Shown: piece by piece, positions 412 through 13,719 of the stretch
Layout of the letters: each line of letters opens with the position of its first letter
How positions within the stretch are numbered: position 1 is the stretch's first letter
Virus record (IMG/VR): IMGVR_UViG_2703718843_000008
DNA: 17,915 nt
Origin: a virus
Lineage: Duplodnaviria > Heunggongvirae > Uroviricota > Caudoviricetes
Strand: one strand, 5' to 3'
Translations under genes and position numbers: made by a program
The notes under the pieces: generated by a model
Told to the model about the DNA's origin: nothing
Databases searched by the model: none
The model's input: the letters and a program-made list of their open reading frames with translations, nothing else

Positions 412-537
412 ATGTCTGCACCTGCACTGCCTGATGTCAGAACAGTATTTTGATGAATTGCCAAGGTTACAATGGCACAAATACGGCACAGGAGGAAACG
501 TGGTGTATTTAAATATGGGGTAACTCTTTGATTTTAA

Positions 538-554
538 TGGTGCCGATAATAGGA
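538..554. repeat. Distal att core: 17-bp direct repeat TGGTGCCGATAATAGGA, identical to 12161..12177 (18 bp identical if 537/12160 is included)
   Basis: Exact repeat seen at both ends of the satellite. The sequence is the reverse complement of the tRNA 3' end (TCCTATTATCGGCACCA). Confidence 0.65.
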
Positions 555-671
555 ATAAAATAAAACGATAACACACTGAAAAATATACAAAAAAGAAACA
601 CACCGTTAAGTAATGCCCCCGAAAATGCCCCCATAATAGATGCCGCAGTAAGTCGACTTGTCCCAAGGACT

Positions 672-714
672 GGTAAGTAATGTCAATAGCGGGAACAAAG
701 AGACATTACTTACC
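672..714. repeat. Perfect 13-bp inverted repeat (GGTAAGTAATGTC / GACATTACTTACC), 17-nt spacer, just downstream of the PRTase gene stop
   Basis: Seen directly. No U-tract follows on either strand, so it is not a canonical intrinsic terminator. Confidence 0.4.
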
Positions 715-734
715 GAGAATGGAATCCATTTAGG

Positions 735-1961
735 TTATGCTGGCCAATCCCACTGCTGATAGGCAGAGAATAGGCGCGTGAGCTCAGCAGGCGCAAGAAT
801 ATCAACAATATTAGCTCTGTAGCTATGCGATTTACCTAATGGAACATTTTCGAAATGATTAGCTTGATAAGGATTAAAATCGTGAAGCTCACCTAATGTT
901 GAGATATCGGTATTAATAGTTTTAAGCCAAGAAACAAGAATTACTTTTGCCCCTGTTCTCTGTATGTAAGCTCTTGCCGATTCAAAACTATAGCCTCGCG
1001 TTGTTATATCATCTATAAGAAGTACTGTTTTACCAGGGCCTAAAGGTGGTTTTTTATAGGTAGTTCTAGGATTTCTGTGTGGCTTAGAATTAAGACAAAT
1101 TGTATTAAGTTGATTGCAATGGTCAATTGCAACTCCCTCATTTCTTGCTTTTTGAGATTTTTTGGAAGTCGTATGCCTTAAAATAAGATCTGGGATATAC
1201 GTCTTGCGAAAACATTTTCCAAATATTGAAATCGCTTCATCCATGATATTATTCCCATATCCTTGCTTATGCCCTGGATAAACACTAACATAATTAATCA
1301 TCTTATGAATGCCACTAAAATAGAGACTGGATATTAAGGCACTCGTCCAAAATTCAGGATGGCCTAATCCATGTTTAGCAGCACGAGCATCTTCAGAGTA
1401 AAGAGTATACTCTTCCTTCATGGTGCTGAAAGGAGCAAGTGCATAGAAATTAAAATCACCATCGTGAATTTCATGACACCAAAGATGCTCTCTTAAACAG
1501 AAGGTATCTATAAATCTAGCAATATCTTTAGGGGTTGAAAACTCGAAACCATAATCTGTTTTGTCTGCCCACCATGTAGCTCTTAAAAAGAGCAACTCAC
1601 CATTAACTGCTGTTTGCATGTCGTTTATCGAAGCACCAATGTACAAAGTTTCTGTACTTTCCCAACCCATCAAATCAAGGACATATTTTGTAGCATCCGC
1701 AGTTGGCTTCCCTGGAATGCTCTTATCTTTCGCTCGACAAAGATATTTAAATTCTCCCCAATGCTTTTGTAACACATCCTCTAAAGGGGTTCTTTCATCT
1801 CCGACAACCCACCCCCTGTTAGTGAATACAACAAACTCGATCTTTTTAGTTCTGAAATATCTAATTAATTTATCTACCTCTGCAAAGATTTCGCTATCGA
1901 TCTTTCCCTTAGGCACAAGAATATCTTCAACACTAAGAATCACACCCTTAATTTTGCTCAT
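735..1961 (-). CDS. Two-domain protein: N-terminal HAD-like domain with non-canonical motif I, C-terminal type I phosphoribosyltransferase (PRTase) domain; candidate defense effector
   Basis: 408-aa ORF, ATG preceded by AAGGAAGA. C-terminal PRPP-binding signature GKTVLLIDDITTRGYS. N-terminal HAD-like motifs (FVVFTNRGW; GKP; IGASINDMQTA) but the usual DxD nucleophile position reads SVEDIL. AT-rich. Confidence 0.85.
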   Translation of the reverse strand: MSKIKGVILSVEDILVPKGKIDSEIFAEVDKLIRYFRTKKIEFVVFTNRGWVVGDERTPLEDVLQKHWGEFKYLCRAKDKSIPGKPTADATKYVLDLMGWESTETLYIGASINDMQTAVNGELLFLRATWWADKTDYGFEFSTPKDIARFIDTFCLREHLWCHEIHDGDFNFYALAPFSTMKEEYTLYSEDARAAKHGLGHPEFWTSALISSLYFSGIHKMINYVSVYPGHKQGYGNNIMDEAISIFGKCFRKTYIPDLILRHTTSKKSQKARNEGVAIDHCNQLNTICLNSKPHRNPRTTYKKPPLGPGKTVLLIDDITTRGYSFESARAYIQRTGAKVILVSWLKTINTDISTLGELHDFNPYQANHFENVPLGKSHSYRANIVDILAPAELTRLFSAYQQWDWPA

Positions 1962-1971
1962 TTCATCTTCC

Positions 1972-3036
1972 TTAGAGATCTAAGCTCTGCTGTATCGGCT
2001 GTGCTTTTAAATCATGATTATTATTCAAAATATAATTACTCATCTCATTCAATTCAAAAGGCATTAAAAAAGATAAAGAATTTCTATTTTCTTCAGCAAA
2101 CTTCAATTCTGGTCTACTTTCATACGTAGTAGGAAGATATGGACTCGCTATCTTTTTTGCATACTTAAAAGCATAATCAACAGTATGTGATGTTCCACTT
2201 TTAATATTCCATTCGACTGGTATTAGTGAATCACATAAAGCAGCCTGGATTCTGTTGCGCCTTACAAAATTTTCTGCGCTATATGTTTGTTCAGGTAGAT
2301 ACTCGGTAACGATAGCCCCACCATTAGAAACTATTGCTCGATATAACTCTTTAGAACCTTTCGGATACTCGACAAAAATCCCATTACCCAATACCGCAAT
2401 AGTTGGAATGCCATATCTCAGCGATTCATAATGACAACATTGATCTATTCCTGTCGCCAAACCACTGACTGTTGAAACATCTTTAGAATATAGAGAAGAA
2501 ACAATCAGTTTTACTAGAAAAATACCATCATCCGTTGGCTTTCGTGTCCCCACAATTGCAACAGATTTCTTATTAAGAAGTTCATAATTACCATGAACAA
2601 AAATCCAAAATGGCGGATCGCTTATGTTCTTTAATGATTGAGGAAATGTAGCCTGATCATAAAAGGTGAGCACAATACCATTTTTATTGAGTTCACGAGC
2701 TCTCTCCAGTCCCTTAGACCAAAGGTCTTGTTGAAATGTTTCCCAAGATATATTTTTAGGCAAGGAAACTCTTAGATATCCTGCCAAGGCATCAGCTGTA
2801 TTATCTTTTAATATATTCTTAAATCCAATTTTGGATTGATAGATTTTGCGAAGCGTCCAGTAACCAACCCCCTTTAGACAAGTTAAGGCAAGAAACGCAA
2901 TAATTTCATTTTTCCAAAACTCTCTAACTTCAGTGTAATCTTTATATTCCATTTTACGTTTGCCTTTTAGATTACAACCCGTACTCAACACAAAAAATTT
3001 AGAAAATTGTTGCCAAAAGCATATTATAAATAGCAT
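1972..3036 (-). CDS. DprA/Smf-like (SLOG superfamily) protein; candidate defense partner of the PRTase protein
   Basis: Rossmann-like DprA signature VAIVGTRKPTDDG ... SGLATGIDQCCH ... TIAVLGNG ... YP ... RRNRIQAAL. Stop codon lies 10 nt before the PRTase ATG, so the two are co-transcribed. True start may be the internal ATG at 2952 (MEYKDY...); the first 28 codons are AT-rich and include a TATAAT. Confidence 0.8.
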   Translation of the reverse strand: MLFIICFWQQFSKFFVLSTGCNLKGKRKMEYKDYTEVREFWKNEIIAFLALTCLKGVGYWTLRKIYQSKIGFKNILKDNTADALAGYLRVSLPKNISWETFQQDLWSKGLERARELNKNGIVLTFYDQATFPQSLKNISDPPFWIFVHGNYELLNKKSVAIVGTRKPTDDGIFLVKLIVSSLYSKDVSTVSGLATGIDQCCHYESLRYGIPTIAVLGNGIFVEYPKGSKELYRAIVSNGGAIVTEYLPEQTYSAENFVRRNRIQAALCDSLIPVEWNIKSGTSHTVDYAFKYAKKIASPYLPTTYESRPELKFAEENRNSLSFLMPFELNEMSNYILNNNHDLKAQPIQQSLDL

Positions 3037-3317
3037 CTTACCGCAGATTTGTGAAGCAACAACATCCCTAGGAGAAACCTTAACCTAGCGGGATAACTTA
3101 CTGACCAATCCTCAGCTAGCTCATTGAATTGCCCCCATATCGCACAGCCCCGCACGCCTGCCCGCTTCGCTTAACAGACTGGTTTTCATGCACCTCATAA
3201 ATCGTCTCAGAAGCCACCAAACAAGGGCTTTCTCGTCAAAAATGGTGCATAAGACTCATGCGTTTTCATGCGCCATAGACATGCACTCATGCGCTCTCAG
3301 GCCAGCCAGGGAAAAGG

Positions 3318-3346
3318 TGTTAAAAATCCCGGTACTCGACCGGGAT
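3318..3346 (-). terminator. Intrinsic terminator of the late (sid-psu-ogr) operon
   Basis: On the minus strand, stem AATCCCGGT / ACCGGGATT with 5-nt loop, followed by TTTTAA; about 20 nt downstream of the ogr-like stop. Confidence 0.55.
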
Positions 3347-3366
3347 TACGTGAGAGTTTTTTCTAA

Positions 3367-3639
3367 TCAGACAGGAATCTGCTGACGGCTTGACAGTTTT
3401 GACGCGGAGCCATAGCGATTGAGCGTTTGCTGTTGTTTTACCAGGGTTTGTGATTTGTCTGGTTCCTGTTCATTGCGCCGGGGTTTCATGATTATCTTAT
3501 CCACACTCTCCAGTGCCGTAAATGTGCAGGAACATTCCAGATTCTGGCACTGATACCACGAGCGTTTAACTGACGGAGCTTCATAGGCTGCTGTTCTGGC
3601 GTGTGCAACTGTACCGCATTCCGGACATTTAAGTGCCAT
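3367..3639 (-). CDS. ogr: Ogr/Delta-family zinc-finger late transcription activator
   Basis: MALKCPECGTVAHARTAAYEAPSVKRSWYQCQNLECSCTFTALESV matches the P2 Ogr / P4 Delta C-x2-C ... C-x4-C pattern. ATG at 3639 is preceded by AGGAG; the ORF-track start at 3648 is a GTG. Confidence 0.85.
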   Translation of the reverse strand: MALKCPECGTVAHARTAAYEAPSVKRSWYQCQNLECSCTFTALESVDKIIMKPRRNEQEPDKSQTLVKQQQTLNRYGSASKLSSRQQIPV

Positions 3640-3644
3640 TAATA

Positions 3645-4196
3645 TCACTCCTGTATATCGTTAATGTCATTCAGGCGTTGCTGAAAACGCAGATGTTGTG
3701 CCGGAGTGTAAGAGCCCTGGCAATCACGAATCATACTGGGGTCAGGCATCAAACCGGATTCATCCAGGATCTCACGATAATCCCCGGCAATTTCAGGCGG
3801 TGTTATTGCCAGCTGGCGAACCAGAGCACTGCGTAATATACGAAACGCAACGTCAACCCCTCCGCGTCCCTTCAGGAACGGAGCCAGTGCAGATGTCAGG
3901 GCTGCCCCATTCGCCTGCATAAAATTGCTGAGAGCGGCTTCTGTGCAGGCCTCCATCAATAAATGCTGCGAGTAAATGCATTCGCGCGCAGCACAGTTAA
4001 TTTGCCATTTCAGCACATCCAGACGTTCCCGCAGTAATTCGAGCTGTCGGGCATAATCTGCTGGTTTTTCTGTGGCAGTGAGGAGAGATGCTATCTGTTG
4101 TTCAACGGCTTTTCGGCTCTCACTATGTCCGGCCCACAGAATACGGGCATTCCGAAAACTGGTAAGTGCCTGGTCAGGTGTGCCTCGGGCCGTCAT
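3645..4196 (-). CDS. psu: Psu-like polarity suppression protein (P4 family)
   Basis: 183 aa. Segments LKWQINCAA ... FMQANGAALTSALAPFLKG ... YTPAQ resemble P4 Psu as I recall it. ATGA overlap with the upstream gene; AAGGAG RBS. Confidence 0.7.
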   Translation of the reverse strand: MTARGTPDQALTSFRNARILWAGHSESRKAVEQQIASLLTATEKPADYARQLELLRERLDVLKWQINCAARECIYSQHLLMEACTEAALSNFMQANGAALTSALAPFLKGRGGVDVAFRILRSALVRQLAITPPEIAGDYREILDESGLMPDPSMIRDCQGSYTPAQHLRFQQRLNDINDIQE

Positions 4197-4936
4197 ACTG
4201 CTTTCTCCTTCTCAGCAAGTTCCTGACGAACCTTTATTTTATGCATAGCTGCCGGAGAGAGTTGATTACTGAAATCCAGACGCGCCGCATAATCCGGGGC
4301 AACTCCCGCCAGTTTAAACACCGGGTCCTGTTCAGGCATCGCATCGTTAGCCAGAGCCGGTCTGGTGATATGTTTATGAATAAAGTCTTTCAGCACTGTG
4401 TCCGGGTCATTAACTGAATTCACCACACCCACAACGGCACTGGCTTCCCGGCCCATTGTGGATTTAAGCAGGCTCAGCGTCTGAATAAGCGCTTTTCCAT
4501 GCGACTGCATAAAATCCTCCCAGATTTGTTTTGCGCGAATATCCACAAGAATGTTATGCGCGTGGATATACTTTCCGGCTAATTCCGCAGCTTTCTGCGG
4601 CAAAAGTGCATTTTCGCTTTCCTGAGCCGCCAGCAGCTCATCAAAATCCTCAAGCGTTTCTCGTCCCAGCGCAATTTCCGTGCGCAGTTTTTTCATTTCC
4701 TTTGAGACCACGCCCTGACTTTCACGAAACAGCGTGCGCCACTCCTCATTCAGTGTATTCGTCGTGGATTCCATTTCAGCGCGGCGCTGGCGGATTGTCG
4801 CAATATTATCCGCTGCCGCTTTCTGCTGACGACGTGCTTCAAGCCATGCGTTTCTGGCTGTGTTCATGGTTTCCAGTGCCCGCTGCGTTACAGCCGGAAA
4901 AGTGGAAAGGTTGTTATTCACTGCGGTGTTGTTCAT
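4193..4936 (-). CDS. sid: Sid-like capsid size determination (external scaffold) protein, putative
   Basis: 247-aa helical, Gln/Glu/Ala-rich protein directly upstream of psu and ogr. Assignment rests on size and position, not a specific motif. Confidence 0.45.
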   Translation of the reverse strand: MNNTAVNNNLSTFPAVTQRALETMNTARNAWLEARRQQKAAADNIATIRQRRAEMESTTNTLNEEWRTLFRESQGVVSKEMKKLRTEIALGRETLEDFDELLAAQESENALLPQKAAELAGKYIHAHNILVDIRAKQIWEDFMQSHGKALIQTLSLLKSTMGREASAVVGVVNSVNDPDTVLKDFIHKHITRPALANDAMPEQDPVFKLAGVAPDYAARLDFSNQLSPAAMHKIKVRQELAEKEKAV

Positions 4937-5114
4937 GACTTCTCCTGTCGGGTTGGTTCGTTACGTCAATTGTGTCGTGGCTGACACAAGCACACTATCG
5001 GTGCTCAGTGTGTGGTGGCTGGCACAACGGGCGCTTGCGGTTATTCAGACGTGGCTATGAAAGCCAGCCAGATAAAAATGCCCACTGTTTCAGTCTGCTT
5101 TATGTCCCTGATGC

Positions 5115-5311
5115 GGTGGAACAGGTGAAACATGTGTTACAGCTTTGTTTTATAAATCATTTATATACACTGCACCGGTGGAACATCGCGGGTAACAAGG
5201 TGGAACAGCGGATTGGCTGGCGTTACATCTGTTCCACCTCACTATTTCAGAAGGTGGAACAGGTTCAGCCCCTGTAAAATACGGTTGTTCCACCTGTTTC
5301 ACCTGTTACCC
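5115..5311. repeat. Iteron cluster with AT-rich tract; putative satellite replication origin / cis replication region
   Basis: At least 7 copies of GGTGGAACA / TGTTCCACC in both orientations (5115, 5177, 5199, 5230, 5253, 5286), plus GGTGAAACA / TGTTTCACC variants and an AT-rich stretch at about 5137..5170, immediately downstream of the primase-helicase gene. Confidence 0.6.
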
Positions 5312-5337
5312 TTAATAAATAAGACTCACGCAAAGCC

Positions 5338-8010
5338 TTAACCCGGCACCTCGCTGTTGAAGACATAGAGCCTGCGGGGATTCATCTCTGGCGGGCGAAT
5401 GGTTGTCTGGAGTTTGCCATCAGTGGAGGGCAGCAGGTATCCACGATCTGCGCACAGACGCGCCACCTTGCGCGGGTCAAATCCCCTGCAGATTTCTTTC
5501 CAGCCGGACGGCATGACATAAAACGTAGTGACAGCTTCCGTGCCCTGCGCGGTACTGCCTTTCTCCACCCTGCGCCAGCCCACCATATTGGCGGGACGGT
5601 TGCGCTCGTCATACCAGTCTGCAAAGCGGCTGTACTGATTCGCGGTAAAGAAACTGCGAACCTGCTCCAGTGCGGCGATATCTTCCTGATTGGCGGTGTG
5701 CCCGCGCTCTTTCAGCCATGCGTTCAGGCAGACGCGGGTTGCCCGCAATGCTTCACCCTCAGGCCAGCCGGTGATACCCAGACGGGTTGCCAGTTCACCT
5801 GCCATCGCCACCAGTGCAAAGCGGTTCACAGCCCGGCCCACCTGATTGCCTGCATCTTTCGGAGTCAGGGCGGCAGCATATTCCTTCATCAGCGATTTTG
5901 CCTGTGCCGTTAGTCCGTTAAGATCAGCGGTCAGTGCTTTCAGCCACTCCCGGAACGGCGAACCGTAGTAGCAGGACGTGGCCCATTCAAGATGCTCTGC
6001 CAGAGCCTTGCCGCTGTCGAAGCCGTGCAGCTCCTCAAAAACGCCAAACTTCCCGGAATCGCTGGGGATCTGGATCATCCTGACTTCCATCCCGGCAAAA
6101 GTACGCTCACCGGCCTTTGCCGCATGTTCGGTCAGAGATAACTCGCCAGTTGAAAAGAACAACAGGCGCCACTGCTTACGGGTACGCAGTTCACCGTCCG
6201 TACCGGCACGACTCTTGCCCTGACCGTTTGCCAGCATGTAGGCGATATTGCCTGCCTCGCGTCCGTCAACTTCCCGGATCTCATCAAGCATCATGGCGGC
6301 ATCGTTGCGGCGGCTGGCACATCCCTCCAGCGCGTTGCCGGTGGCCCGCCATGTCTGCCAGTAGTCAGGCCCGCCGCAGACGGAGGTTGCCGCTTTCATG
6401 GTGGTGGTCTTACCGTCTGTCGATTCCCCTTTGAGGTGGTAGCCGCCGCCGTCCATACCAACCAGCCGTAACAGTGGTGCAGCAAAGGCCAGGCTGACAG
6501 CAAATGCCACGCGGGAGTTGCCGGTACAGTAGCGGGATACGTTCTCCCGCCATTCCTCTGTTGTGCCCGACACGCGGAAATCACGCCCCTGCACGGAAGT
6601 GGTCTGGAGAATGACACCCTCTGCACCTTCACCGCTGACCTCATCCTGCAGGACGTAAACCTGACCATGCCAGCCAGTACGGCTGACGCAGGTCACGCGA
6701 CGTTCCGGTTTACACAGTGAGATATATTCCATCAGGCGTGCGCGTGCCTCACCGGTGGTGCTGATATAAGACAGCCCGTTAACAAGCAGTACCCGGCGCA
6801 GTTCCTCACCACTGCCGCTCAGCATTTCCATCGGCATCGCCCAGCGGCGACGCTCACCCCACGTATCTTCCCATTCCAGCAGTCGTCCGAAGTTACCGCC
6901 ATCGGCATCGCAGGTGATTGCCGTCACGCGCAGCGGGCTGCATATTTTGACGTTCTGGATCTCCGTCTCACCGTTGCGCTGTACCTGCTTTTCATACCAG
7001 AGATATTCCTGGGTAAGACGGAACCCGTGCGGCAGTTGCGTGCGGCCTTCCCCGCACAGTACCAGACCGTTGCGAAAGGCTTCACGGGCACGGGTAATAC
7101 CGTGCTCCCGATGAAAGTCATTCCAGTCAGCCTTAATCTCTCCTGGTGGCAGCGTCATCCAGCCGCCAACAGCTTTTGCCGCCCGTTCAGCAAAGGCTCT
7201 GCCGGGATTCTCCCCCCCGTCCTGAAAATCGTTATCACCGGCGATGATAATTTTTACCTCAGGCCAGCGTGCCCGCAGCGACTGCGCCACATTGGGCAGG
7301 TTGCCCGCAGATATGGCAGCCACTACGCATCCGGCAGTGAGCTGGCTTACCGTCAGCGCCGTAGCGTAACCTTCGGTAATCACCACCTGTACCGGTGGTT
7401 CAGACGGTAACGGGCTGAGCGACACAAACGCGCCTTTCATCGTGCTGCCGGGCAGTATGCTTTTTTCACCCGTCGGGGCGATAAGCTGTGCACCGGTCAC
7501 GGCTCCGGTGTTGGTCGTGAGTGGTAACAGCAGGGAACCGGCAGGAAAATCCTTACCGCTGATATGCTGCACGCTTCCGGTCAGAGAGGCCGGGTATCCG
7601 GCGAACCCTTTTCCTGCCAGATAGGCACTTTCTCCCGTGTGGCTCTCTTTCATCAGCGTCGCCACGGTAAGGCTCATGTCGCGTTTAGGGGCTTTTTGTC
7701 TGGCAGGCTTAACAGGCAGTTCCTGCACATCCGGCACATTAAGCACCTGCGCCACCTGCTGCGCAGCCTTTCTGACGTTGTAGCCGGTTACGAGCTTAAC
7801 CAGATCCAGACCGTCACCATTGCCACACTGGCTGCAGATCCACGTCCCGCGCCCGTCAAGGTCATCGAGGCGAAAACGATCCTTGCCCCCACATTTCGGG
7901 CAGGGACCGTGCCTGCCGTTTTCAGGTACATCAATACGCAGCATATGCAGAATAACGGGCCATTTCCCCCGCGCGGCGGCTGAAATCTGCGTAACCGTCT
8001 GTATTGTCAT
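5338..8010 (-). CDS. P4 alpha-like replicative primase-helicase
   Basis: 890 aa. N-terminal zinc-binding motif CPKCGG ... CSQCG; Toprim-like VVITEGYATA ... IIIAGDND; P-loop GESTDGKTTT. ATGA overlap with the upstream ORF. Confidence 0.9.
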   Translation of the reverse strand: MTIQTVTQISAAARGKWPVILHMLRIDVPENGRHGPCPKCGGKDRFRLDDLDGRGTWICSQCGNGDGLDLVKLVTGYNVRKAAQQVAQVLNVPDVQELPVKPARQKAPKRDMSLTVATLMKESHTGESAYLAGKGFAGYPASLTGSVQHISGKDFPAGSLLLPLTTNTGAVTGAQLIAPTGEKSILPGSTMKGAFVSLSPLPSEPPVQVVITEGYATALTVSQLTAGCVVAAISAGNLPNVAQSLRARWPEVKIIIAGDNDFQDGGENPGRAFAERAAKAVGGWMTLPPGEIKADWNDFHREHGITRAREAFRNGLVLCGEGRTQLPHGFRLTQEYLWYEKQVQRNGETEIQNVKICSPLRVTAITCDADGGNFGRLLEWEDTWGERRRWAMPMEMLSGSGEELRRVLLVNGLSYISTTGEARARLMEYISLCKPERRVTCVSRTGWHGQVYVLQDEVSGEGAEGVILQTTSVQGRDFRVSGTTEEWRENVSRYCTGNSRVAFAVSLAFAAPLLRLVGMDGGGYHLKGESTDGKTTTMKAATSVCGGPDYWQTWRATGNALEGCASRRNDAAMMLDEIREVDGREAGNIAYMLANGQGKSRAGTDGELRTRKQWRLLFFSTGELSLTEHAAKAGERTFAGMEVRMIQIPSDSGKFGVFEELHGFDSGKALAEHLEWATSCYYGSPFREWLKALTADLNGLTAQAKSLMKEYAAALTPKDAGNQVGRAVNRFALVAMAGELATRLGITGWPEGEALRATRVCLNAWLKERGHTANQEDIAALEQVRSFFTANQYSRFADWYDERNRPANMVGWRRVEKGSTAQGTEAVTTFYVMPSGWKEICRGFDPRKVARLCADRGYLLPSTDGKLQTTIRPPEMNPRRLYVFNSEVPG

Positions 8011-8390
8011 ACTTCCCCCTGATACAACGTCACACCAGTACTGCAGAAGTCATCAAAGGTCGCCGGAAGCGTGCGGTACATCTCCGCCATTACTTCACAG
8101 CCGCGCGCGGTCAGTACCGGCGGCGCGGTCAGCAGTGACGGCTCCAGCATGTCAGTCAGCAGTGCCAGCGCGGCAGCGGCGCCCTGTGCTTCGCCGTACT
8201 CGTTAATCAGTGCGCACTCGATATGCAGCGCAATGGCCATTTCAATACGCTCCACCGTCAGGCTGTGCGGACCATACTGATCACTGCCAGTTTCGTTCAG
8301 CATTTTCTGCCGCCATGCTGAAGCAATAGCCCGCCGGTAAAGCGCGGTTGTCATTTCTGCCGGGAAAATGGAAACCTGCGGCTGGTTCAT
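8007..8390 (-). CDS. Hypothetical satellite early-operon protein
   Basis: 127-aa ORF with strong RBS (GAAGGAGGTG); translationally coupled on both sides by ATGA overlaps. Confidence 0.55.
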   Translation of the reverse strand: MNQPQVSIFPAEMTTALYRRAIASAWRQKMLNETGSDQYGPHSLTVERIEMAIALHIECALINEYGEAQGAAAALALLTDMLEPSLLTAPPVLTARGCEVMAEMYRTLPATFDDFCSTGVTLYQGEV

Positions 8391-8671
8391 CTGGCACCTC
8401 CTTCAATCAGTGCACAGCTGTGCGCAATATCCGTCAAATCTGCCCGCAGGTACTCCATCAGCGCGGCGACACCATGCGCACAGCCAGCGTCCAGTGCTCC
8501 GGCCTGAGACGAGTATTCAGAAAAGAGAAGCTGGAGCATGTCGCAGGCATTTCTTGCGCGGGTCAGCTTTCCGAAACTGTCCTCTGACAACCCATAGGCA
8601 AAAGCACCGGTATTGTGTTTTTCAGGCAAAGTGTGGCCCTGAGCACCGTTGTGCCCGTTTGAAATATTCAT
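8387..8671 (-). CDS. Hypothetical satellite early-operon protein
   Basis: 94-aa ORF, ATG start with ACGGAG RBS, ATGA overlap with the downstream gene. Confidence 0.55.
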   Translation of the reverse strand: MNISNGHNGAQGHTLPEKHNTGAFAYGLSEDSFGKLTRARNACDMLQLLFSEYSSQAGALDAGCAHGVAALMEYLRADLTDIAHSCALIEGGAR

Positions 8672-8702
8672 CGTGGATTACTCCGTTTTCAGCGGTATTT
8701 TG

Positions 8703-9062
8703 TCAGAGAAACTTTGAATAGTGACCGTCGTCAGGCTCAGCAGAACGCCGTATGCTACGCTCCCGCCAGCGGATAAATAGCACAGACGGATGCAGTGTCA
8801 GCGGGCCGGAACCACTACCGCCTGCAGGAGCTGGTGCAGGCTTAAAGAGCGGTACATCAAACAGGCGCGTATACCGCTGTTCAAACCATGCCAGAGGGCA
8901 GGAAGAAAGCTGGTTGTCGCTGTCATGACGTATCAGCACTTCACAGCTGAATTCAGGATTAACCAGCGCCACAGAGGGCGAGGCTTCAATTAATCGGATA
9001 ATCGTGACCGTCCAGCCACGTTCATGCTGCCAGCGTTCGCCGGGGTGCGGATAATTACGCAT
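8703..9062 (-). CDS. Hypothetical satellite early-operon protein
   Basis: ORF-track start at 9092 is a TTG; the ATG at 9062 (MRNYPHPGERW...) is preceded by GGAGGTG and is the likelier start. Confidence 0.5.
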   Translation of the reverse strand: MRNYPHPGERWQHERGWTVTIIRLIEASPSVALVNPEFSCEVLIRHDSDNQLSSCPLAWFEQRYTRLFDVPLFKPAPAPAGGSGSGPLTLHPSVLFIRWRERSIRRSAEPDDGHYSKFL

Positions 9063-9231
9063 GTTCACCTCCGCAGGGAATGCGCCCGGCAAAGCTCAGT
9101 ACATAATCCGGGGCAAGTCTGCGCCGCGCTGACCGCTCGTTATCTGCGGTGATCCTTAACATCACAGGACGGGCATTGCGTTGACTGCGGTTGATCGCCG
9201 CAAATAACCAGGTACACTTCTGTTTAGCCAT
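9055..9231 (-). CDS. Small hypothetical protein (58 aa), first gene of the leftward operon
   Basis: ATG with AAGAGGT RBS; MAKQKCTWLFAAINRSQRNARPVMLRITADNERSARRRLAPDYVLSFAGRIPCGGEHA. Below the 60-aa ORF-track cutoff. Stop overlaps the next gene's start. Confidence 0.4.
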   Translation of the reverse strand: MAKQKCTWLFAAINRSQRNARPVMLRITADNERSARRRLAPDYVLSFAGRIPCGGEHA

Positions 9232-9320
9232 CTTCGTTACCTCTTATAACGGTTGGTTAAATGCCCGATTTGTGTTCCCGCACAATCGGGCATTGCTTTT
9301 ACAAGCGAACTATACTTACA

Positions 9321-9365
9321 ATGGTAATTACCATGTAGTCATCATATTCTAGGGTAATTACCATG
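9321..9365. promoter_or_regulatory. Two palindromic operator-like sites in the divergent promoter region
   Basis: ATGGTAATTACCAT (9321..9334, perfect 14-bp palindrome) and GGTAATTACC (9353..9362). The second overlaps the ATG of the ribbon-helix-helix gene. Confidence 0.5.
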
Positions 9366-9536
9366 TCAACACCACAAGAGAAACGTTCCCCACCATTCCA
9401 AATGCGTCTTACCGACGATTTTAGGTTGCAACTCGAAAAAGAAATGCGCAAAGATGGAGATAGCGCGTTGGCAACTTGGATTAAAAGAATTTTACGTAAA
9501 GAACTACAATCACGCGGGATTGACCCTAAAGGTTAA
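9363..9536 (+). CDS. Arc/Mnt-like ribbon-helix-helix repressor (57 aa)
   Basis: PPFQMRLTDDFRLQLEKEMRKDG-DSALATWIKRILRKEL follows the beta-strand/helix/helix pattern of Arc-type repressors. Divergent from the early operon. Not in the ORF track (under 60 aa). Confidence 0.55.
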   Translation: MSTPQEKRSPPFQMRLTDDFRLQLEKEMRKDGDSALATWIKRILRKELQSRGIDPKG

Positions 9537-9568
9537 TCAGTTAAATATTACTAACTATCAATTAAGGC

Positions 9569-9859
9569 TTAGGGAGTAGGTGATAATCTATTCCCTTTAT
9601 TAATTGCTCTTGCCTTATTTCTCATCCCCTCAAACTGTTGACCTGAGTTTTCTTCAAACCCATCTCGCCACTTATAATAATCAGCAGCGCGCCATCGGGA
9701 CATCCGACCTATTTTTATAGGTTTTGGAAAGCGATTCAGAGAAATCAATCGATAAATCCATTTGTCACTTAATAAACAATCGGAAGTAATAAACTTCATA
9801 TCGATCAGAGAATCCATTGAAGGTCGTTGCAAAGTAGTATTATCATGTTTAGATAACAT
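9569..9859 (-). CDS. AlpA/Vis-family HTH protein (excisionase or regulator)
   Basis: 96 aa; IYRLISLNRFPKPIKIGRMSRWRAADYYKW matches the AlpA-type pattern (FP-P-I-G ... W ... W). GGAG RBS. Confidence 0.75.
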   Translation of the reverse strand: MLSKHDNTTLQRPSMDSLIDMKFITSDCLLSDKWIYRLISLNRFPKPIKIGRMSRWRAADYYKWRDGFEENSGQQFEGMRNKARAINKGNRLSPTP

Positions 9860-9984
9860 TCATCATTCTCCGTTTATCTAAGTCTATTGGCTTCAACACG
9901 GAAAATTAAAACATAGGTTATAAATGAGAAAAATGTGACTAATGAAAAAAATCCAAAATCATTAGTCACAATAATTGTTAACAT

Positions 9985-10809
9985 TTAGTTAAACTTAATG
10001 TTTTTCATGCAACTACGTAGCAAGCTAACAACAGTATCATAGCTCAAAGGTGGTTCTCCGGTCTTAGGCCAGAACTCACTGGCATGTTGAAAAAGATAAT
10101 CAGCTATCGCTGCTGGACTCTCTCTTCTTAGCCTCATATCACGATGATAGAGCGAAATAATAGCCATGAGTATTTCAGTTCGAGGAACAGCATGTTTTTG
10201 TTTTTGCGCCTCAGATTGTGATTTATATTTATTGGCGTTTTTTATCCGTTTTTGTTCGCATAAGACTATATCAATGAATTTTTGAATCTGTACCTTTGTA
10301 ATCCACAAAACCTCAAAAAGATAATAATTTTCTTTTTCATCATAATTTACATAAAGAATTACCTTACAATTTATATTAGGCGTACCCGCCAGTAGAAAAT
10401 GAATAGGCCAGGAATCCGGTTGCCCCTCATGCTTAACTAACAGATCTTTATATTCATAATCAACAGCCCATAAACCGGATATAAAGCATCGAATAAAACC
10501 ATTTTTATCAATTAAATTATTTTCATCAGGGATTCTTATAGAGCTTAAGTCTGACAACATAATATTGCCATTTCTATCTCGTGGTAAATATTTCAGATTA
10601 GATAAGAACTCATCCATTTGACCATCAATCTTCAAACCACATGAAACATCATACTCATCATCATGGAATTCCATGCATAGCTCTACATCTCGTTCTCTGG
10701 CAAACCAGAGTATATCCTTTTCACTACAACCAATTTTTTCTGAAGCTTCATCCAACTGGTAGTAATCTCTGAGCAGAGAATCAGTATTATTAATTTTTAA
10801 AATATTCAT
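9985..10809 (-). CDS. Hypothetical protein, AT-rich orphan cargo gene translationally coupled to the integrase
   Basis: 274-aa ORF whose ATG overlaps the integrase stop (ATGA). Marked AT-rich codon usage; no motif I can recognise. Confidence 0.65.
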   Translation of the reverse strand: MNILKINNTDSLLRDYYQLDEASEKIGCSEKDILWFARERDVELCMEFHDDEYDVSCGLKIDGQMDEFLSNLKYLPRDRNGNIMLSDLSSIRIPDENNLIDKNGFIRCFISGLWAVDYEYKDLLVKHEGQPDSWPIHFLLAGTPNINCKVILYVNYDEKENYYLFEVLWITKVQIQKFIDIVLCEQKRIKNANKYKSQSEAQKQKHAVPRTEILMAIISLYHRDMRLRRESPAAIADYLFQHASEFWPKTGEPPLSYDTVVSLLRSCMKNIKFN

Positions 10810-11996
10810 TTATGAGTACCAATTAGCTCAGATAAATAATTAGCATACCATTGCATCATTTCTCTTCTCCCTTCGAGATATTGGGCATGGTTATAAATTC
10901 CACGAATAGAGTTTTTGTCCGAATGAGCAAGCTGGGTTTCAATCCAAGCGCTGTTAAATCCTTTCTCATGTAGAATTGTACTCATCGTATGCCTGAAACC
11001 ATGTCCCGTAACACGCCCTGCATATCCAATACGTTTAAACACCTGATTGATGCTTGCTTCACTCATAAATTTGCTAGGATCGTTGCGTCCAGGGAACATC
11101 AGCGGGTAGTTCCCAGTTAGTTCTTTCAAACTTTTGAGATGGGATAATGCTTGTTTTGGTAACGGGACAATATGGCTCCTACGCATTTTCATACGTTCTT
11201 TTGGGATCTCCCACACCGCATTATCAAAATCCACCTCTCGCCACTCACCTGCTCGTAGTTCTCCAGTTCGTAGACCTGTCAGGATAAGTAAATGCGCCCC
11301 CAACAATACAATTGGACTTCCTGAATAAGAATTAAGGGCATTAAAGAACTCCGGTAGTTCGTTGGCTTTGAGGAATGGATAGTGGACTGCTTCATGTCCT
11401 TGCATCGCACTGGCAAGATCCGGTGCCGGATTGTAGATTGCCCTACCCGTTACGATGGCATAGCGAAAAACTTCACCGCATCGCTGACGGACTTTCTTCG
11501 CTTTCTCCATAGCGCCTCGAGCTTCTATCAACCTCAGAACTTCAAGCAGTTCAAGGGGCTGAATATCAGCTATAGGTCTGTGCCCAATATGCGGAAAAAT
11601 GTCTTTCTCAAATGCCTCAATGATGTCGGAAGCATAGCCCTCAGACCATTTGGATGATTTCATTTTGTGCCACTCTAACGCCACTTCTCTGAATGGGTTA
11701 AGTGTCTCAATCGCTGCGTTTAAAGCCTGCTTTTTGGCTTTTTTGACTTCGCCGGGATCTTCACCTGCTGCGAGTAGTTTCTTTGCGTCTTCTCGTTTTT
11801 GTCTGGCATCAGCAAGTGTGACTGTTGGATAAACACCAAAGGACAATCGTTTCTCTTTACCAGCAAAACGGTATTTCATACGCCAGTAACGCGAGCCATT
11901 AGGTTCGACCTGAAGGTATAGGCCACCTCCATCAAACAGCTTATAGCTCTTCTCTTTTCCTTTCGCAGCTTCAACCTTGCGGGCATTCAGCATCAT
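10806..11996 (-). CDS. int: P4-type tyrosine integrase
   Basis: N-terminus KSYKLFDGGGLYLQVEPNGSRYWRMKYRFAGKEKRLSFGVYP is typical of P4-family integrases; C-terminal catalytic residues HGFRHT ... Y. ORF-track start at 12065 is a TTG; ATG at 11996 or 11993 (MMLNARKVE) fits the family N-terminus better. Confidence 0.9.
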   Translation of the reverse strand: MMLNARKVEAAKGKEKSYKLFDGGGLYLQVEPNGSRYWRMKYRFAGKEKRLSFGVYPTVTLADARQKREDAKKLLAAGEDPGEVKKAKKQALNAAIETLNPFREVALEWHKMKSSKWSEGYASDIIEAFEKDIFPHIGHRPIADIQPLELLEVLRLIEARGAMEKAKKVRQRCGEVFRYAIVTGRAIYNPAPDLASAMQGHEAVHYPFLKANELPEFFNALNSYSGSPIVLLGAHLLILTGLRTGELRAGEWREVDFDNAVWEIPKERMKMRRSHIVPLPKQALSHLKSLKELTGNYPLMFPGRNDPSKFMSEASINQVFKRIGYAGRVTGHGFRHTMSTILHEKGFNSAWIETQLAHSDKNSIRGIYNHAQYLEGRREMMQWYANYLSELIGTHK

Positions 11997-12160
11997 TGGG
12001 GGCACATTTCCTAGACCGAACAGAACATGCCCCTGATTGTGCCCCCAACCGCGTGTTGATTTCAAGAGACAAGGGTTGACCTCAAACGTATGAAAACAAC
12101 GTAATATATATGTTTTTAAATGATTTTGTTGATGTGGGTTGACTTGGGAAAACTAGGTGA

Positions 12161-12209
12161 TGGTGCCGATAATAGGAGTCGAACCTACGACCTTCGCATT
12201 ACGAATGCG
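12161..12209 (-). pseudogene. ptwF: Partial tRNA-Thr(CGU) gene, 3' 49 nt only (thrW-like att remnant)
   Basis: Minus strand reads CGCATTCGTAATGCGAAGGTCGTAGGTTCGACTCCTATTATCGGCACCA: anticodon stem-loop with CGT anticodon, T-arm (GGTTCGACTCC), acceptor 3' strand and CCA. No D-arm or 5' acceptor strand upstream. The symbol is my recollection of the K-12 name. Confidence 0.75.
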
Positions 12210-12318
12210 ATGTTAATGCATTTTTAACTACTTGAGCAATCAATCAAAACAACATACTTTATATTATAAAACACCAAGTTATAGCAATAAACCCGTTGAT
12301 TGAAATTAACAAAAGTTG

Positions 12319-13719
12319 ATGTTTATTCCCTCCATTTACTTACACCAGCAGTTACATTATTGTAAGACAGCAATTCTCAACTGGAGCCGAAAAATGGCGC
12401 TTTCAAGACAAAAATTTACCTTCGAAAGACTTCGCAGATTCACCTTACCGGAAGGGAAAAAACAAACTTTTCTTTGGGATGCAGATGTAACAACCCTGGC
12501 ATGCCGAGCAACTAGCGGAGCAAAAGCCTTTGTATTCCAAAGCGTATATGCGGGGAAAACCCTTCGCATGACTATTGGCAACATTAACGACTGGAAGATT
12601 GATGATGCGAGAGCCGAGGCAAGACGGTTACAAACATTGATCGATACAGGGATAGATCCACGAATTGCTAAGGCTGTAAAAATCGCAGAAGCAGAATCCC
12701 TGCAGGCAGAATCACGTAAAACAAAAGTGACTTTCTCCGTCGCCTGGGAAGACTATCTTCAAGAATTGAGAACCGGTATCAGTGCAAAAACTAAACGCCC
12801 ATATTCTACTCGATACATTGCCGATCACATTAACTTGTCCAGTCGTGGAGGCGAAAGTAAAAAAAGAGGCCAAGGCCCGACTTCGGCTGGACCATTGGCT
12901 AGTTTGCTCAACCTGCCGTTATCGGAGCTAACCCCAGATTACATAGCAGCGTGGCTGAGTACAGAAAGGCAAAATAGACCTACCGTCACTGCTCACGCTT
13001 ATCGCCTACTACGTGCTTTCATCAAATGGAGTAATTATCAGAAAAAATATCAAGGGATCATTCCTGGCGATCTGGCACAAGATTACAACGTAAGAAAAAT
13101 GGTTCCCGTGTCAGCGAGTAAAGCTGATGATTGCCTGCAAAAGGAACAACTAAAAAGCTGGTTTAGTGCCGTGCGTAGCCTCAATAATCCTATTGCATCG
13201 GCCTATCTCCAAGTACTTTTGCTCACTGGTGCTCGGCGTGAAGAAATTGCGTCGCTTCGCTGGTCAGACGTAGATTTCAAATGGTCAAGCATGCGAATTA
13301 AAGACAAGATCGAAGGTGAACGTATCATCCCTCTCACTCCTTATGTTTCTGAATTGTTAAATGTACTAGCGCAATCCCCAAATTCTGACGTAAATAAGGA
13401 GGGTTGGGTTTTCAGAAGTAACAGTAAAAGTGGCAAAATTATTGAGCCGCGTTCAGCGCACAACAGAGCGTTAGTGCTGGCTGAGTTACCACATATCAGC
13501 CTTCACGGTTTACGTCGTAGTTTTGGTACTTTGGCCGAGTGGGTTGAAGTTCCCACTGGTATTGTTGCTCAAATTATGGGACACAAACCCAGCGCTCTTG
13601 CCGAAAAACACTATCGCCGTCGTCCGTTAGATCTGTTACGAAAATGGCACGAGAAAATTGAGACATGGATCTTAAATGAAGCAGGTATTACCATAAAAAA
13701 CAACGTTGATATGCGTTGA
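12319..13719 (+). CDS. intF: Tyrosine integrase of the neighbouring cryptic prophage
   Basis: Tyrosine recombinase motifs LLLTGARREE ... HGLRRSFGT ... GHKPSALAEKHY. First ATG at 12319 gives 466 aa (ORF-track start 12316 is a TTG). Confidence 0.85.
   Translation: MFIPSIYLHQQLHYCKTAILNWSRKMALSRQKFTFERLRRFTLPEGKKQTFLWDADVTTLACRATSGAKAFVFQSVYAGKTLRMTIGNINDWKIDDARAEARRLQTLIDTGIDPRIAKAVKIAEAESLQAESRKTKVTFSVAWEDYLQELRTGISAKTKRPYSTRYIADHINLSSRGGESKKRGQGPTSAGPLASLLNLPLSELTPDYIAAWLSTERQNRPTVTAHAYRLLRAFIKWSNYQKKYQGIIPGDLAQDYNVRKMVPVSASKADDCLQKEQLKSWFSAVRSLNNPIASAYLQVLLLTGARREEIASLRWSDVDFKWSSMRIKDKIEGERIIPLTPYVSELLNVLAQSPNSDVNKEGWVFRSNSKSGKIIEPRSAHNRALVLAELPHISLHGLRRSFGTLAEWVEVPTGIVAQIMGHKPSALAEKHYRRRPLDLLRKWHEKIETWILNEAGITIKNNVDMR

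Follow-up and report, generated by a model that had tools for sequence, protein, structure and literature searches.

A candidate SaPI/PICI-type replication origin directly after the primase-helicase gene of a P4-like satellite prophage

In the pathogenicity islands of Staphylococcus aureus (SaPIs), the winged-helix domain of the initiator Rep binds 6-12 iterons that lie immediately after the rep gene, in opposed orientation around an AT-rich centre, and Rep, which is a self-loading helicase, binds and melts the origin without ATP (PMC9371898). Phage-inducible chromosomal islands (PICIs) of Escherichia coli have the same origin plan, and the pri-rep-ori portion from one of them, EcCICFT073, drives plasmid replication (PMC6092414). 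Here we analyse an array of short repeats at positions 5115-5312 of a 17,915-nucleotide stretch of viral DNA (IMG/VR record IMGVR_UViG_2703718843_000008), which as a whole we call the window and which holds a P4-like satellite prophage integrated at a tRNA gene in E. coli. Our analysis suggests, with a probability of roughly 80%, that this array is the single replication origin of the satellite, that it is of the SaPI/PICI type, and that it is bound by the C-terminal domain of the satellite's own initiator, an alpha-like primase-helicase (Pri-Rep) of 890 amino acids (aa); we assign it to this type because both homology and layout match. A SaPI/PICI-type pri-rep-ori replicon, here in a P4-like satellite, is an expected kind of feature, and no new kind of element need be proposed.

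The array is built from units of nine base pairs. The sequence GGTGGAACA occurs exactly six times in the whole window, on the plus strand at 5115, 5177, 5199 and 5253 and on the minus strand at 5230-5238 and 5286-5294, and GGTGAAACA occurs twice, at 5124 (plus) and 5295-5303 (minus). These eight canonical units, in both orientations, all fall within 189 bp (5115-5303), with none elsewhere in the 17.9 kb; in 2000 shuffles of the window the pattern GGTG[GA]AACA appeared on average 0.24 times in total, and there was never more than one unit per 190 bp, compared with the eight observed. An alignment of 12 close relatives reveals four further, degenerate but conserved units, at 5135-5143 (minus), 5189-5197 (plus), 5221-5229 (minus) and 5304-5312 (minus), which brings the array to 12 units over 5115-5312. 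A preliminary description of this DNA had reported at least seven exact units in both orientations, together with variants, at 5115-5311. The two orientations and the variants are as described and the coordinates were near-exact once the degenerate units are included, but the count of exact copies has to be corrected to six of one sequence and two of the other.

How are these units arranged? The array begins 26 bp past the stop codon of the initiator gene (5338..8010, minus strand), so that the candidate origin lies immediately 3' of the replication gene, as it does in SaPI/PICI-type replicons. At this alpha-proximal edge a tandem triple on the minus strand (5286..5312) reads AGGGTAACA-GGTGAAACA-GGTGGAACA (5304-5312, 5295-5303 and 5286-5294); it is the degenerate outermost unit that makes this edge a triple, as it is in other lineages. 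Central units of mixed orientation (5177..5261) stand at 5253-5261 (plus), 5230-5238 (minus), 5221-5229 (minus, degenerate), 5199-5207 (plus), 5189-5197 (plus, the degenerate CGGGTAACA) and 5177-5185 (plus). At the alpha-distal edge a tandem pair on the plus strand, GGTGGAACA-GGTGAAACA (5115..5132), is inverted relative to the proximal triple, with which it forms an inverted repeat. Between this pair and the triple that it faces lies an AT-rich tract (5133..5176) with the degenerate unit 5135-5143 at its edge, which we propose as the DNA-unwinding element. Its GC content is 0.30 over 5133-5176 and 0.17 over 5137-5166, and the least stable 30-mer of the intergenic region begins at 5138 (dG -30.2, against a window mean of -39.6 with a standard deviation of 4.2). 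The array thus has the expected number of short iterons (6-12), in two sets around an AT-rich region and with at least two opposed units on each side. All of this is contained in a gap of 401 bp (4937-5337) between the primase-helicase gene (8010..5338, minus) and the sid-psu-delta genes (4936..3367, minus), and both this location and the adjacent AT-rich tract had been correctly noted beforehand.

The array is not peculiar to this satellite. Homologues of the initiator number roughly 3300. When a single genome was scanned for each species, 53 loci were found to carry a homologue of the gene, and in 46 of the 48 usable loci the stop codon of the homologous gene is followed after 25-50 bp (up to 93 bp in L035) by an array about 200 bp long. 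Absence of the iterons from homologous elements, which the preliminary description had named as grounds for giving up an iteron-type origin beside the primase-helicase gene, is therefore not what we find, and the comparative evidence strongly supports that proposal. Over about 105 related loci, such an array comes after each complete, intact copy of the gene. The layout common to the relatives runs, from the gene outwards, through 2-3 tandem units, about 24 bp of spacer, one inverted unit, about 17 bp, 2 tandem units, 1-3 inverted units, an AT-rich gap and finally 2-3 inverted tandem units; the first 2-3 tandem units stand at +26 to +52 past the stop codon in nearly all relatives, and the AT-rich gap occupies the same place in the array, its lowest-GC 36-mer having a GC content of 0.14-0.31 and lying mostly at +145 to +205.

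While the layout is conserved across lineages, the sequence of the unit is lineage-specific. We distinguish class A, GGTGGAACA, which includes the window; class B, GGTGTAACA; class C, GGGGTAACA; class D, [CG][TA]GGTAACA; class E, GTGGATACA; and class F, TGTAGTACA; a further group has GTGGGAACA. The array also persists where the surroundings change. Two loci (L048 and L049) are without the primase domain and without sid, psu and delta genes and keep the array, which in L049 comprises 12 copies of GGTGGAACA, and in a Proteus mirabilis satellite of a different type with the same Pri-Rep (CP049941; L055 6689-17091) a single GGTGTAACA array, the only one in 22.7 kb, sits between the alpha-like gene and an Ogr/Delta gene. 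The gene content of this Proteus element comprises alpA, a P2-type major capsid gene, a GPO_N scaffold gene, Ash, the alpha-like gene, the iterons, Ogr/Delta, a reverse-transcriptase (retron-like) cargo gene and an integrase gene in reverse orientation. In Klebsiella spallanzanii (L037) and Scandinavium (L045), where the helicase gene is intact, an integrase gene lies directly 3' of it and a GTGGGAACA array follows 1.2 kb further on; a tyrosine-recombinase gene and a small open reading frame (ORF) separate the two (6149-7535 in L037, about 7299-7546 in L045).

Conservation at the level of single bases falls in the units themselves. In a footprinting alignment of 12 loci whose initiators are 90-99% identical, 86 of 108 unit columns within 5115-5312 are invariant, compared with 24 of 90 spacer columns (Fisher p 5e-14). 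Every one of the 12 units is invariant at its positions 4, 6, 7 and 8, but only 3 of them at position 5, and the spacers diverge with insertions and deletions that are not multiples of three. These patterns bear on the possibility that the region encodes a small protein or a structured RNA, the repeats being incidental. ORFs of 101 aa (4972..5277, plus) and 50 aa (5150..5302, minus) do cross it, but a coding or RNA function does not explain why conservation is confined to nine-base-pair units of both orientations, why the spacers tolerate frame-breaking insertions and deletions, or why the unit sequence is replaced wholesale between lineages with the positions kept; moreover, Rfam gives no RNA family match in the array region. 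We regard this explanation as practically negligible.

The protein presumed to read the array is a composite. The alpha-like Pri-Rep gene encodes a primase with zinc ribbon and Toprim (residues 1-316), a helicase of the DUF927 type (about 330-640) and, last, a C-terminal domain (641-890), and Pfam recognises Zn_Ribbon_Prim, Toprim_3 and DUF927 (E 4e-91) in the 890-aa product. Similarity to P4 alpha is confined to residues 4-316 (38% identity over 311-320 aligned residues), and neither BLASTP nor hhalign detects any past residue 316. The rest of the protein, outside the P4-like primase, is covered by phmmer matches to SaPIbov1 Rep (8tch, E 1e-15) and to Cch (5dgk, 2e-13) of the staphylococcal cassette SCCmec. 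In an AlphaFold2 model of residues 641-890 (mean predicted local distance difference test score, pLDDT, 76.5, with values of about 85-95 in the last 60 residues), a helical bundle precedes a winged helix, the latter encoded at about 5341..5523 (minus strand, residues about 830-890). The structures most similar to this model are those of SaPIbov1 Rep, Cch and oriT-bound TcpK, and the origin-binding domain of P4 alpha is not among the top structural matches. We infer that the initiator is a P4-type primase fused to a self-loading hexameric helicase of the SaPI Rep/Cch type; the DUF927 domain indeed places the helicase in the family expected of a SaPI/PICI-type replicon.

A link between protein and array comes from covariation. 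We scanned 890 alignment columns in 45 sequences and found that residue 866 is the sole column that separates classes A, B and C, which have lysine, from classes D, E, F and the GTGGGAACA group, which have arginine; residue 867, together with residue 824, separates A and B from C. K866 goes with GGTG[GT]AACA or GGGGTAACA, R866 with [CG][TA]GGTAACA and others, and there are no exceptions in about 104 loci. The association holds even between near-identical proteins: a Xenorhabdus initiator (L021; GGTGTAACA, K866) is 96.5% identical to those of three loci (L022, L025 and L029) with CTGGTAACA and R866, and a Proteus initiator (L023; GGTGTAACA, T867) is 97.5% identical to that of L026 (TGGGTAACA, P867). 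A tree computed with the wing region left out has lysine lineages in at least three distinct positions. Furthermore, of 60 IMG/VR loci fetched afterwards, 59 could be evaluated, and these out-of-sample loci combined K866 with GGTG[GT]AACA in 25 of 25 cases and R866 with other units in 34 of 34. In the model, residues 866 and 867 (K866 codon 5413-5415, L867 codon 5410-5412 in the window) lie at the base of the predicted wing hairpin; positions 1-3 of the unit appear to set lineage specificity and to be read by these two wing residues.

Position 5 behaves differently. When the window (class A) is compared with four class B loci (L005, L012, L039 and L044), with about 90% identity between the initiators, all units change together from G to T at this position, and we found no protein column that explains the difference between these classes. 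Position 5 is probably not read, as G and A both occur there within the window itself, and its concerted switch suggests homogenisation among repeats, or else another determinant in play. Taken further, the covariation leads to a two-part idea, which we hold only tentatively and think somewhat improbable as a whole: that residue 866 (K or R, with 867) sets which iteron flank is read and so defines groups of replicon specificity, or incompatibility, among the many P4-like and related satellites that live together in Enterobacterales, and that a one-site SaPI-type replicon has replaced the two-site alpha/ori/crr system of P4 with the iterons kept directly upstream of the late promoter Psid. Keeping them there would be a hint of functional coupling between the firing of the origin and the activation of the late promoter.

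Does the array act alone? We found no second cluster of the unit in the element, even with position 5 left free and one mismatch allowed, nor any other repeat array, and a repeat search returned no 120-bp direct repeats of the crr type. Within 4937-5337 there is no exact DnaA box, no consensus site for integration host factor (IHF) and no GATC. The joint lack of DnaA, IHF and GATC sites, of a second array and of a crr-like 120-bp repeat fits a single-site origin that is independent of the host initiator. It might instead be argued that the array is a crr-like auxiliary element in cis, acting by looping or handcuffing, with initiation at another, unrecognised origin: the repeats that come straight after alpha in P4 are those of crr, the unit is common to ori and crr, and our array occupies just that position. 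This we consider quite improbable, given that neither the element nor the 22.7-kb Proteus locus has more than one cluster, that the 120-bp repeats which characterise crr are absent, and that the array has an AT-rich tract of its own between opposed units, which is the plan of a SaPI/PICI origin (PMC9371898).

The same gap contains a putative late promoter, as had been anticipated. Two Ogr/Delta boxes of the form TGT-N12-ACA, which is the consensus of P2/P4 late promoters (PMC3931495), stand on the minus strand at 5009..5026 (about -55 if the P4 geometry applies) and 4971..4988, 38 bp from each other and the latter 43.5 bp (from its centre) from the sid ATG. This geometry is identical to that of P4 Psid (boxes 9493-9510 and 9531-9548, sid ATG 9583 in the P4 record, L001), and the element has the corresponding Ogr/Delta activator gene (delta, 3648..3367). 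Julien and Calendar (1995) reportedly found that Delta binds P4 Psid at about -55 and -18, and from these positions we predict a transcription start near 4962 on the minus strand. Downstream of the array, a pair of boxes at exactly 38 bp recurs in 16 loci where sid or delta follows, loci without these genes have no such pair, and the boxes themselves are constrained, with 25 of 36 columns invariant compared with 4 of 20 between them. From the last iteron unit to the first box there are 88 bp in this element, compared with 79 bp in P4. Since the boxes lie 88 bp from the nearest unit, the late promoter (4962-5026) is a separate module, adjacent to the replication signals but not overlapping them, and the overlap suggested in the preliminary description can be set aside although the boxes of the late promoter that it expected are indeed there. 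Among the relatives the iterons always follow the alpha-like gene, whereas the boxes are present only where sid or delta follows, so that the two modules occur independently.

This independence bears on whether the repeats are instead operator sites for transcription, bound by the alpha protein or by another protein and serving to control read-through from alpha or the late promoter. The array does lie between co-oriented operons, the late promoter is only 88 bp off, and neither an intrinsic terminator nor a sigma-70 promoter consensus is predicted in 4850-5450, which leaves none after the alpha gene. Nevertheless the layout is unchanged in loci without TGT-N12-ACA boxes and without sid and delta (L049 and most of class D), 12 sites over 200 bp around an AT-rich tract are unlike an operator, and the array travels and co-varies with the C-terminal domain of the helicase. 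An operator function is thus in our judgement very improbable.

One could also imagine that some other protein of the element or its helper binds the repeats, as packaging sites (pac or cos-accessory), as a centromere-like partition site or as recombinase arm sites. The P2/P4-type 19-nt cos (GGCGAGGCGGGGAAAGCAC, allowing up to 3 mismatches) and cos-core fragments are nowhere in the window, leaving room for a packaging signal, and the arrays of L037 and L045 adjoin an integrase gene. Against this, the element has no partition genes, its own integrase and tRNA attachment site are 5-7 kb away, and in every context examined the array is tied to a DUF927 gene whose residue 866 predicts the unit type; we take such a role to be highly improbable. 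In the intergenic region from delta to the cargo genes (3037-3366), where a cos would be expected, short repeats are seen, GTTTTCATGC at 3182 and 3262 and ACTCATGCG at 3254 and 3285.

How could replication start from a SaPI/PICI-type origin of this form? In the scheme that we propose, the C-terminal winged helix of the 890-aa protein would bind the 12 units, whose positions 4 and 6-8 (G.AAC) would be the conserved core and whose position 5 would tolerate G, A or T. To either side of the AT-rich tract the arrays face each other, and helicase hexamers could thereby assemble on both sides and melt 5133-5176 without DnaA, after which the fused P4-type primase would prime synthesis. Beyond the conservation of the array and its covariation with the protein, we infer every step of this scheme from sequence.

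Several points weigh against a single origin of this kind. P4 itself needs two sites in cis, so that a single site is an assumption here. The AT-rich tract is only about 2 standard deviations less stable than the window mean, 143 equally unstable 30-mers occur elsewhere in the window, and the tract is off-centre, splitting the 12 units into sets of 3 and 9. The correlation at residue 866 reflects few independent evolutionary events, since many loci are near-duplicates, and the structural placement of the residue comes from a model with an overall pLDDT of 76. Finally, the concerted switch at position 5 occurs between very close relatives without a matching change in the protein.

The element itself extends over about 450-12240, a length of about 11.7 kb that is P4-sized; we set these limits because a tRNA lies beside the integrase gene at one end and, in a matching E. 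coli locus, a truncated host LysR gene at the other. The tRNA (12164-12237, minus), directly upstream of the integrase gene, is detected by Rfam at 45.5 bits and not called by ARAGORN. In an E. coli locus that matches a 1101-bp query (4600-5700) at 100%, RefSeq has a tRNA-Thr next to proA and a truncated LysR gene at the other end. Of 5426 complete E. coli genomes, 325 have the junction of sid, repeats and alpha nearly in full, and RefSeq annotates no origin there. Beyond the tRNA, at 12316-13719 (plus), a second, divergent integrase and island genes (helix-turn-helix, YagK/YfjJ family) suggest another island at the same site. A 7-kb Salmonella 'plasmid' record with a homologue (OX345456) was considered as a sign of autonomy and rejected, since the assembly is fragmented and the record is one of its linear contigs.

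Every gene of the element lies on the minus strand, with one shared direction of transcription, in the order integrase, 274-aa ORF, alpA, further genes, alpha-like gene, candidate origin, sid, psu, delta and cargo, which is like that of Gram-negative PICIs; the order alpha, iterons, sid/delta is common to many relatives, in Yersinia, Serratia, Pantoea and Rahnella. The integrase gene (12065..10806) is followed by the 274-aa ORF (10809..9985) and a gene for an AlpA-like regulator (9859..9569). Between the latter and the early operon two exact 14-nt direct repeats, GGTAATTACCATGT at 9323-9336 and 9353-9366, lie 30 bp apart, each with the palindrome GGTAATTACC, and may be operator sites. Small ORFs come next, among them one of 58 aa (9055-9231), whose counterpart in a related genome RefSeq annotates as an Icd-like host cell division inhibitor, and one for a DUF5375 protein of the P4 orf106 family (8390..8007). 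No immunity RNA of the C4/isrK type is found in the window at the Rfam gathering threshold. Past the array, the late operon opens with a sid-like gene of the Psu family (4193..4936, 247 aa; Pfam Psu, and tblastn against the loci), followed by psu (4196..3645) and the gene for the 93-aa Ogr/Delta protein (3648..3367). Its order is sid-psu-delta here and sid-delta-psu in P4, and Delta has a single Ogr/Delta domain in 93 aa, compared with 166 aa in P4; the swap of psu and delta is a known and frequent variant (PMC8628076). The cargo genes (735-3036), in the position of the variable, defence-type hotspot of P4, encode a DprA-like protein (3036..1972, 354 aa; Pfam DNA_processg_A) and a protein of 408 aa with a weak HAD-hydrolase match (1961..735).

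A large fraction of Enterobacterales genomes carries P4-like satellites. If our reading is correct, a common type of satellite uses a self-loading initiator in the style of SaPIs and PICIs and not the textbook alpha/ori/crr system of P4. The alpha gene together with 4937-5337 would be a concrete fragment for building or testing satellite replicons, and the clean separation of the candidate origin from the late promoter should aid the design of reporters or deletions. We see the most useful new outcome in the lineage-specific units and the rule at residue 866 (K or R), which provide a testable handle on the replicon specificity of co-resident satellites.

It remains to place the locus among known systems. 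Iteron plasmid origins of the R6K, RK2 and pPS10 type likewise have multiple short initiator repeats by an AT-rich unwinding element, with specificity defined by the initiator. Their iterons are direct repeats of 17-22 bp, and the monomeric WH1-WH2 Rep that binds them relies on DnaA and DnaA boxes in recruiting DnaB. We considered a plasmid-type origin for our array and rejected it: the units here have 9 bp and occur in both orientations, no DnaA box is present, and initiator and helicase are one protein. The Cch protein of SCCmec (5dgk) shares the DUF927-type helicase and has a similar C-terminal domain, although SCCmec is not a phage satellite and the cch gene is not known to have an iteron origin beside it.

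The relation to P4 is more intricate, and the preliminary likening of the array to the alpha-binding iterons of P4 ori and crr stands in part. The N-terminal primase is homologous, GGTGGAACA equals the P4 type-1 repeat GGTGAACA plus one base, and the synteny is the same, with iterons upstream of a Psid with two boxes 38 bp apart and then sid. The DNA-binding half of the initiator and the ori-plus-crr arrangement, however, do not correspond. The detectable similarity to alpha does not continue into its SF3 helicase and C-terminal origin-binding domain; the type-1 octamer TGTTCACC/GGTGAACA is not the unit here, GGTGAACA being absent from the cluster with one stray copy ending at 9069; and there are no type-2 repeats. 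P4 has ori and, about 4.5 kb away, crr, which consists of two 120-bp direct repeats, whereas here there is one cluster, whose other side abuts the 3' end of the alpha-like gene where P4 has crr. In P4, moreover, the sid and alpha operons diverge, with int on the far side of alpha and crr, unlike the unidirectional order here. A blastn search of 4937-5337 against 50,697 phage records gave chance matches only, and apart from the unit P4 ori and crr show no similarity to it at the DNA level.

Gram-negative PICIs such as EcCICFT073 (Fillol-Salom et al. 2018, PMC6092414) are close in genomic terms: they share the host E. coli, a co-linear order of int, alpA, further genes, pri-rep, ori and interference or late genes, and two iteron sets around an AT-rich region directly after the replication gene, which is a likeness of plan. 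The element studied here has in addition sid, psu and delta, which are hallmark genes of P4, as well as a promoter of the Psid type, and because of these we class it as P4-like and not as a PICI. Another close system is the Rep/PriRep-ori of the SaPIs (SaPIbov1 Rep, 8tch; SaPI5 PriRep5) in S. aureus. Compared with it, the proposed replicon resides in an enterobacterial host, carries a P4-alpha-type primase with zinc ribbon and Toprim, has units of 9 bp in place of 5-6 bp and an AT-rich tract that is off-centre, and is accompanied by the P4 late genes sid, psu and delta instead of the packaging genes of the SaPIs.

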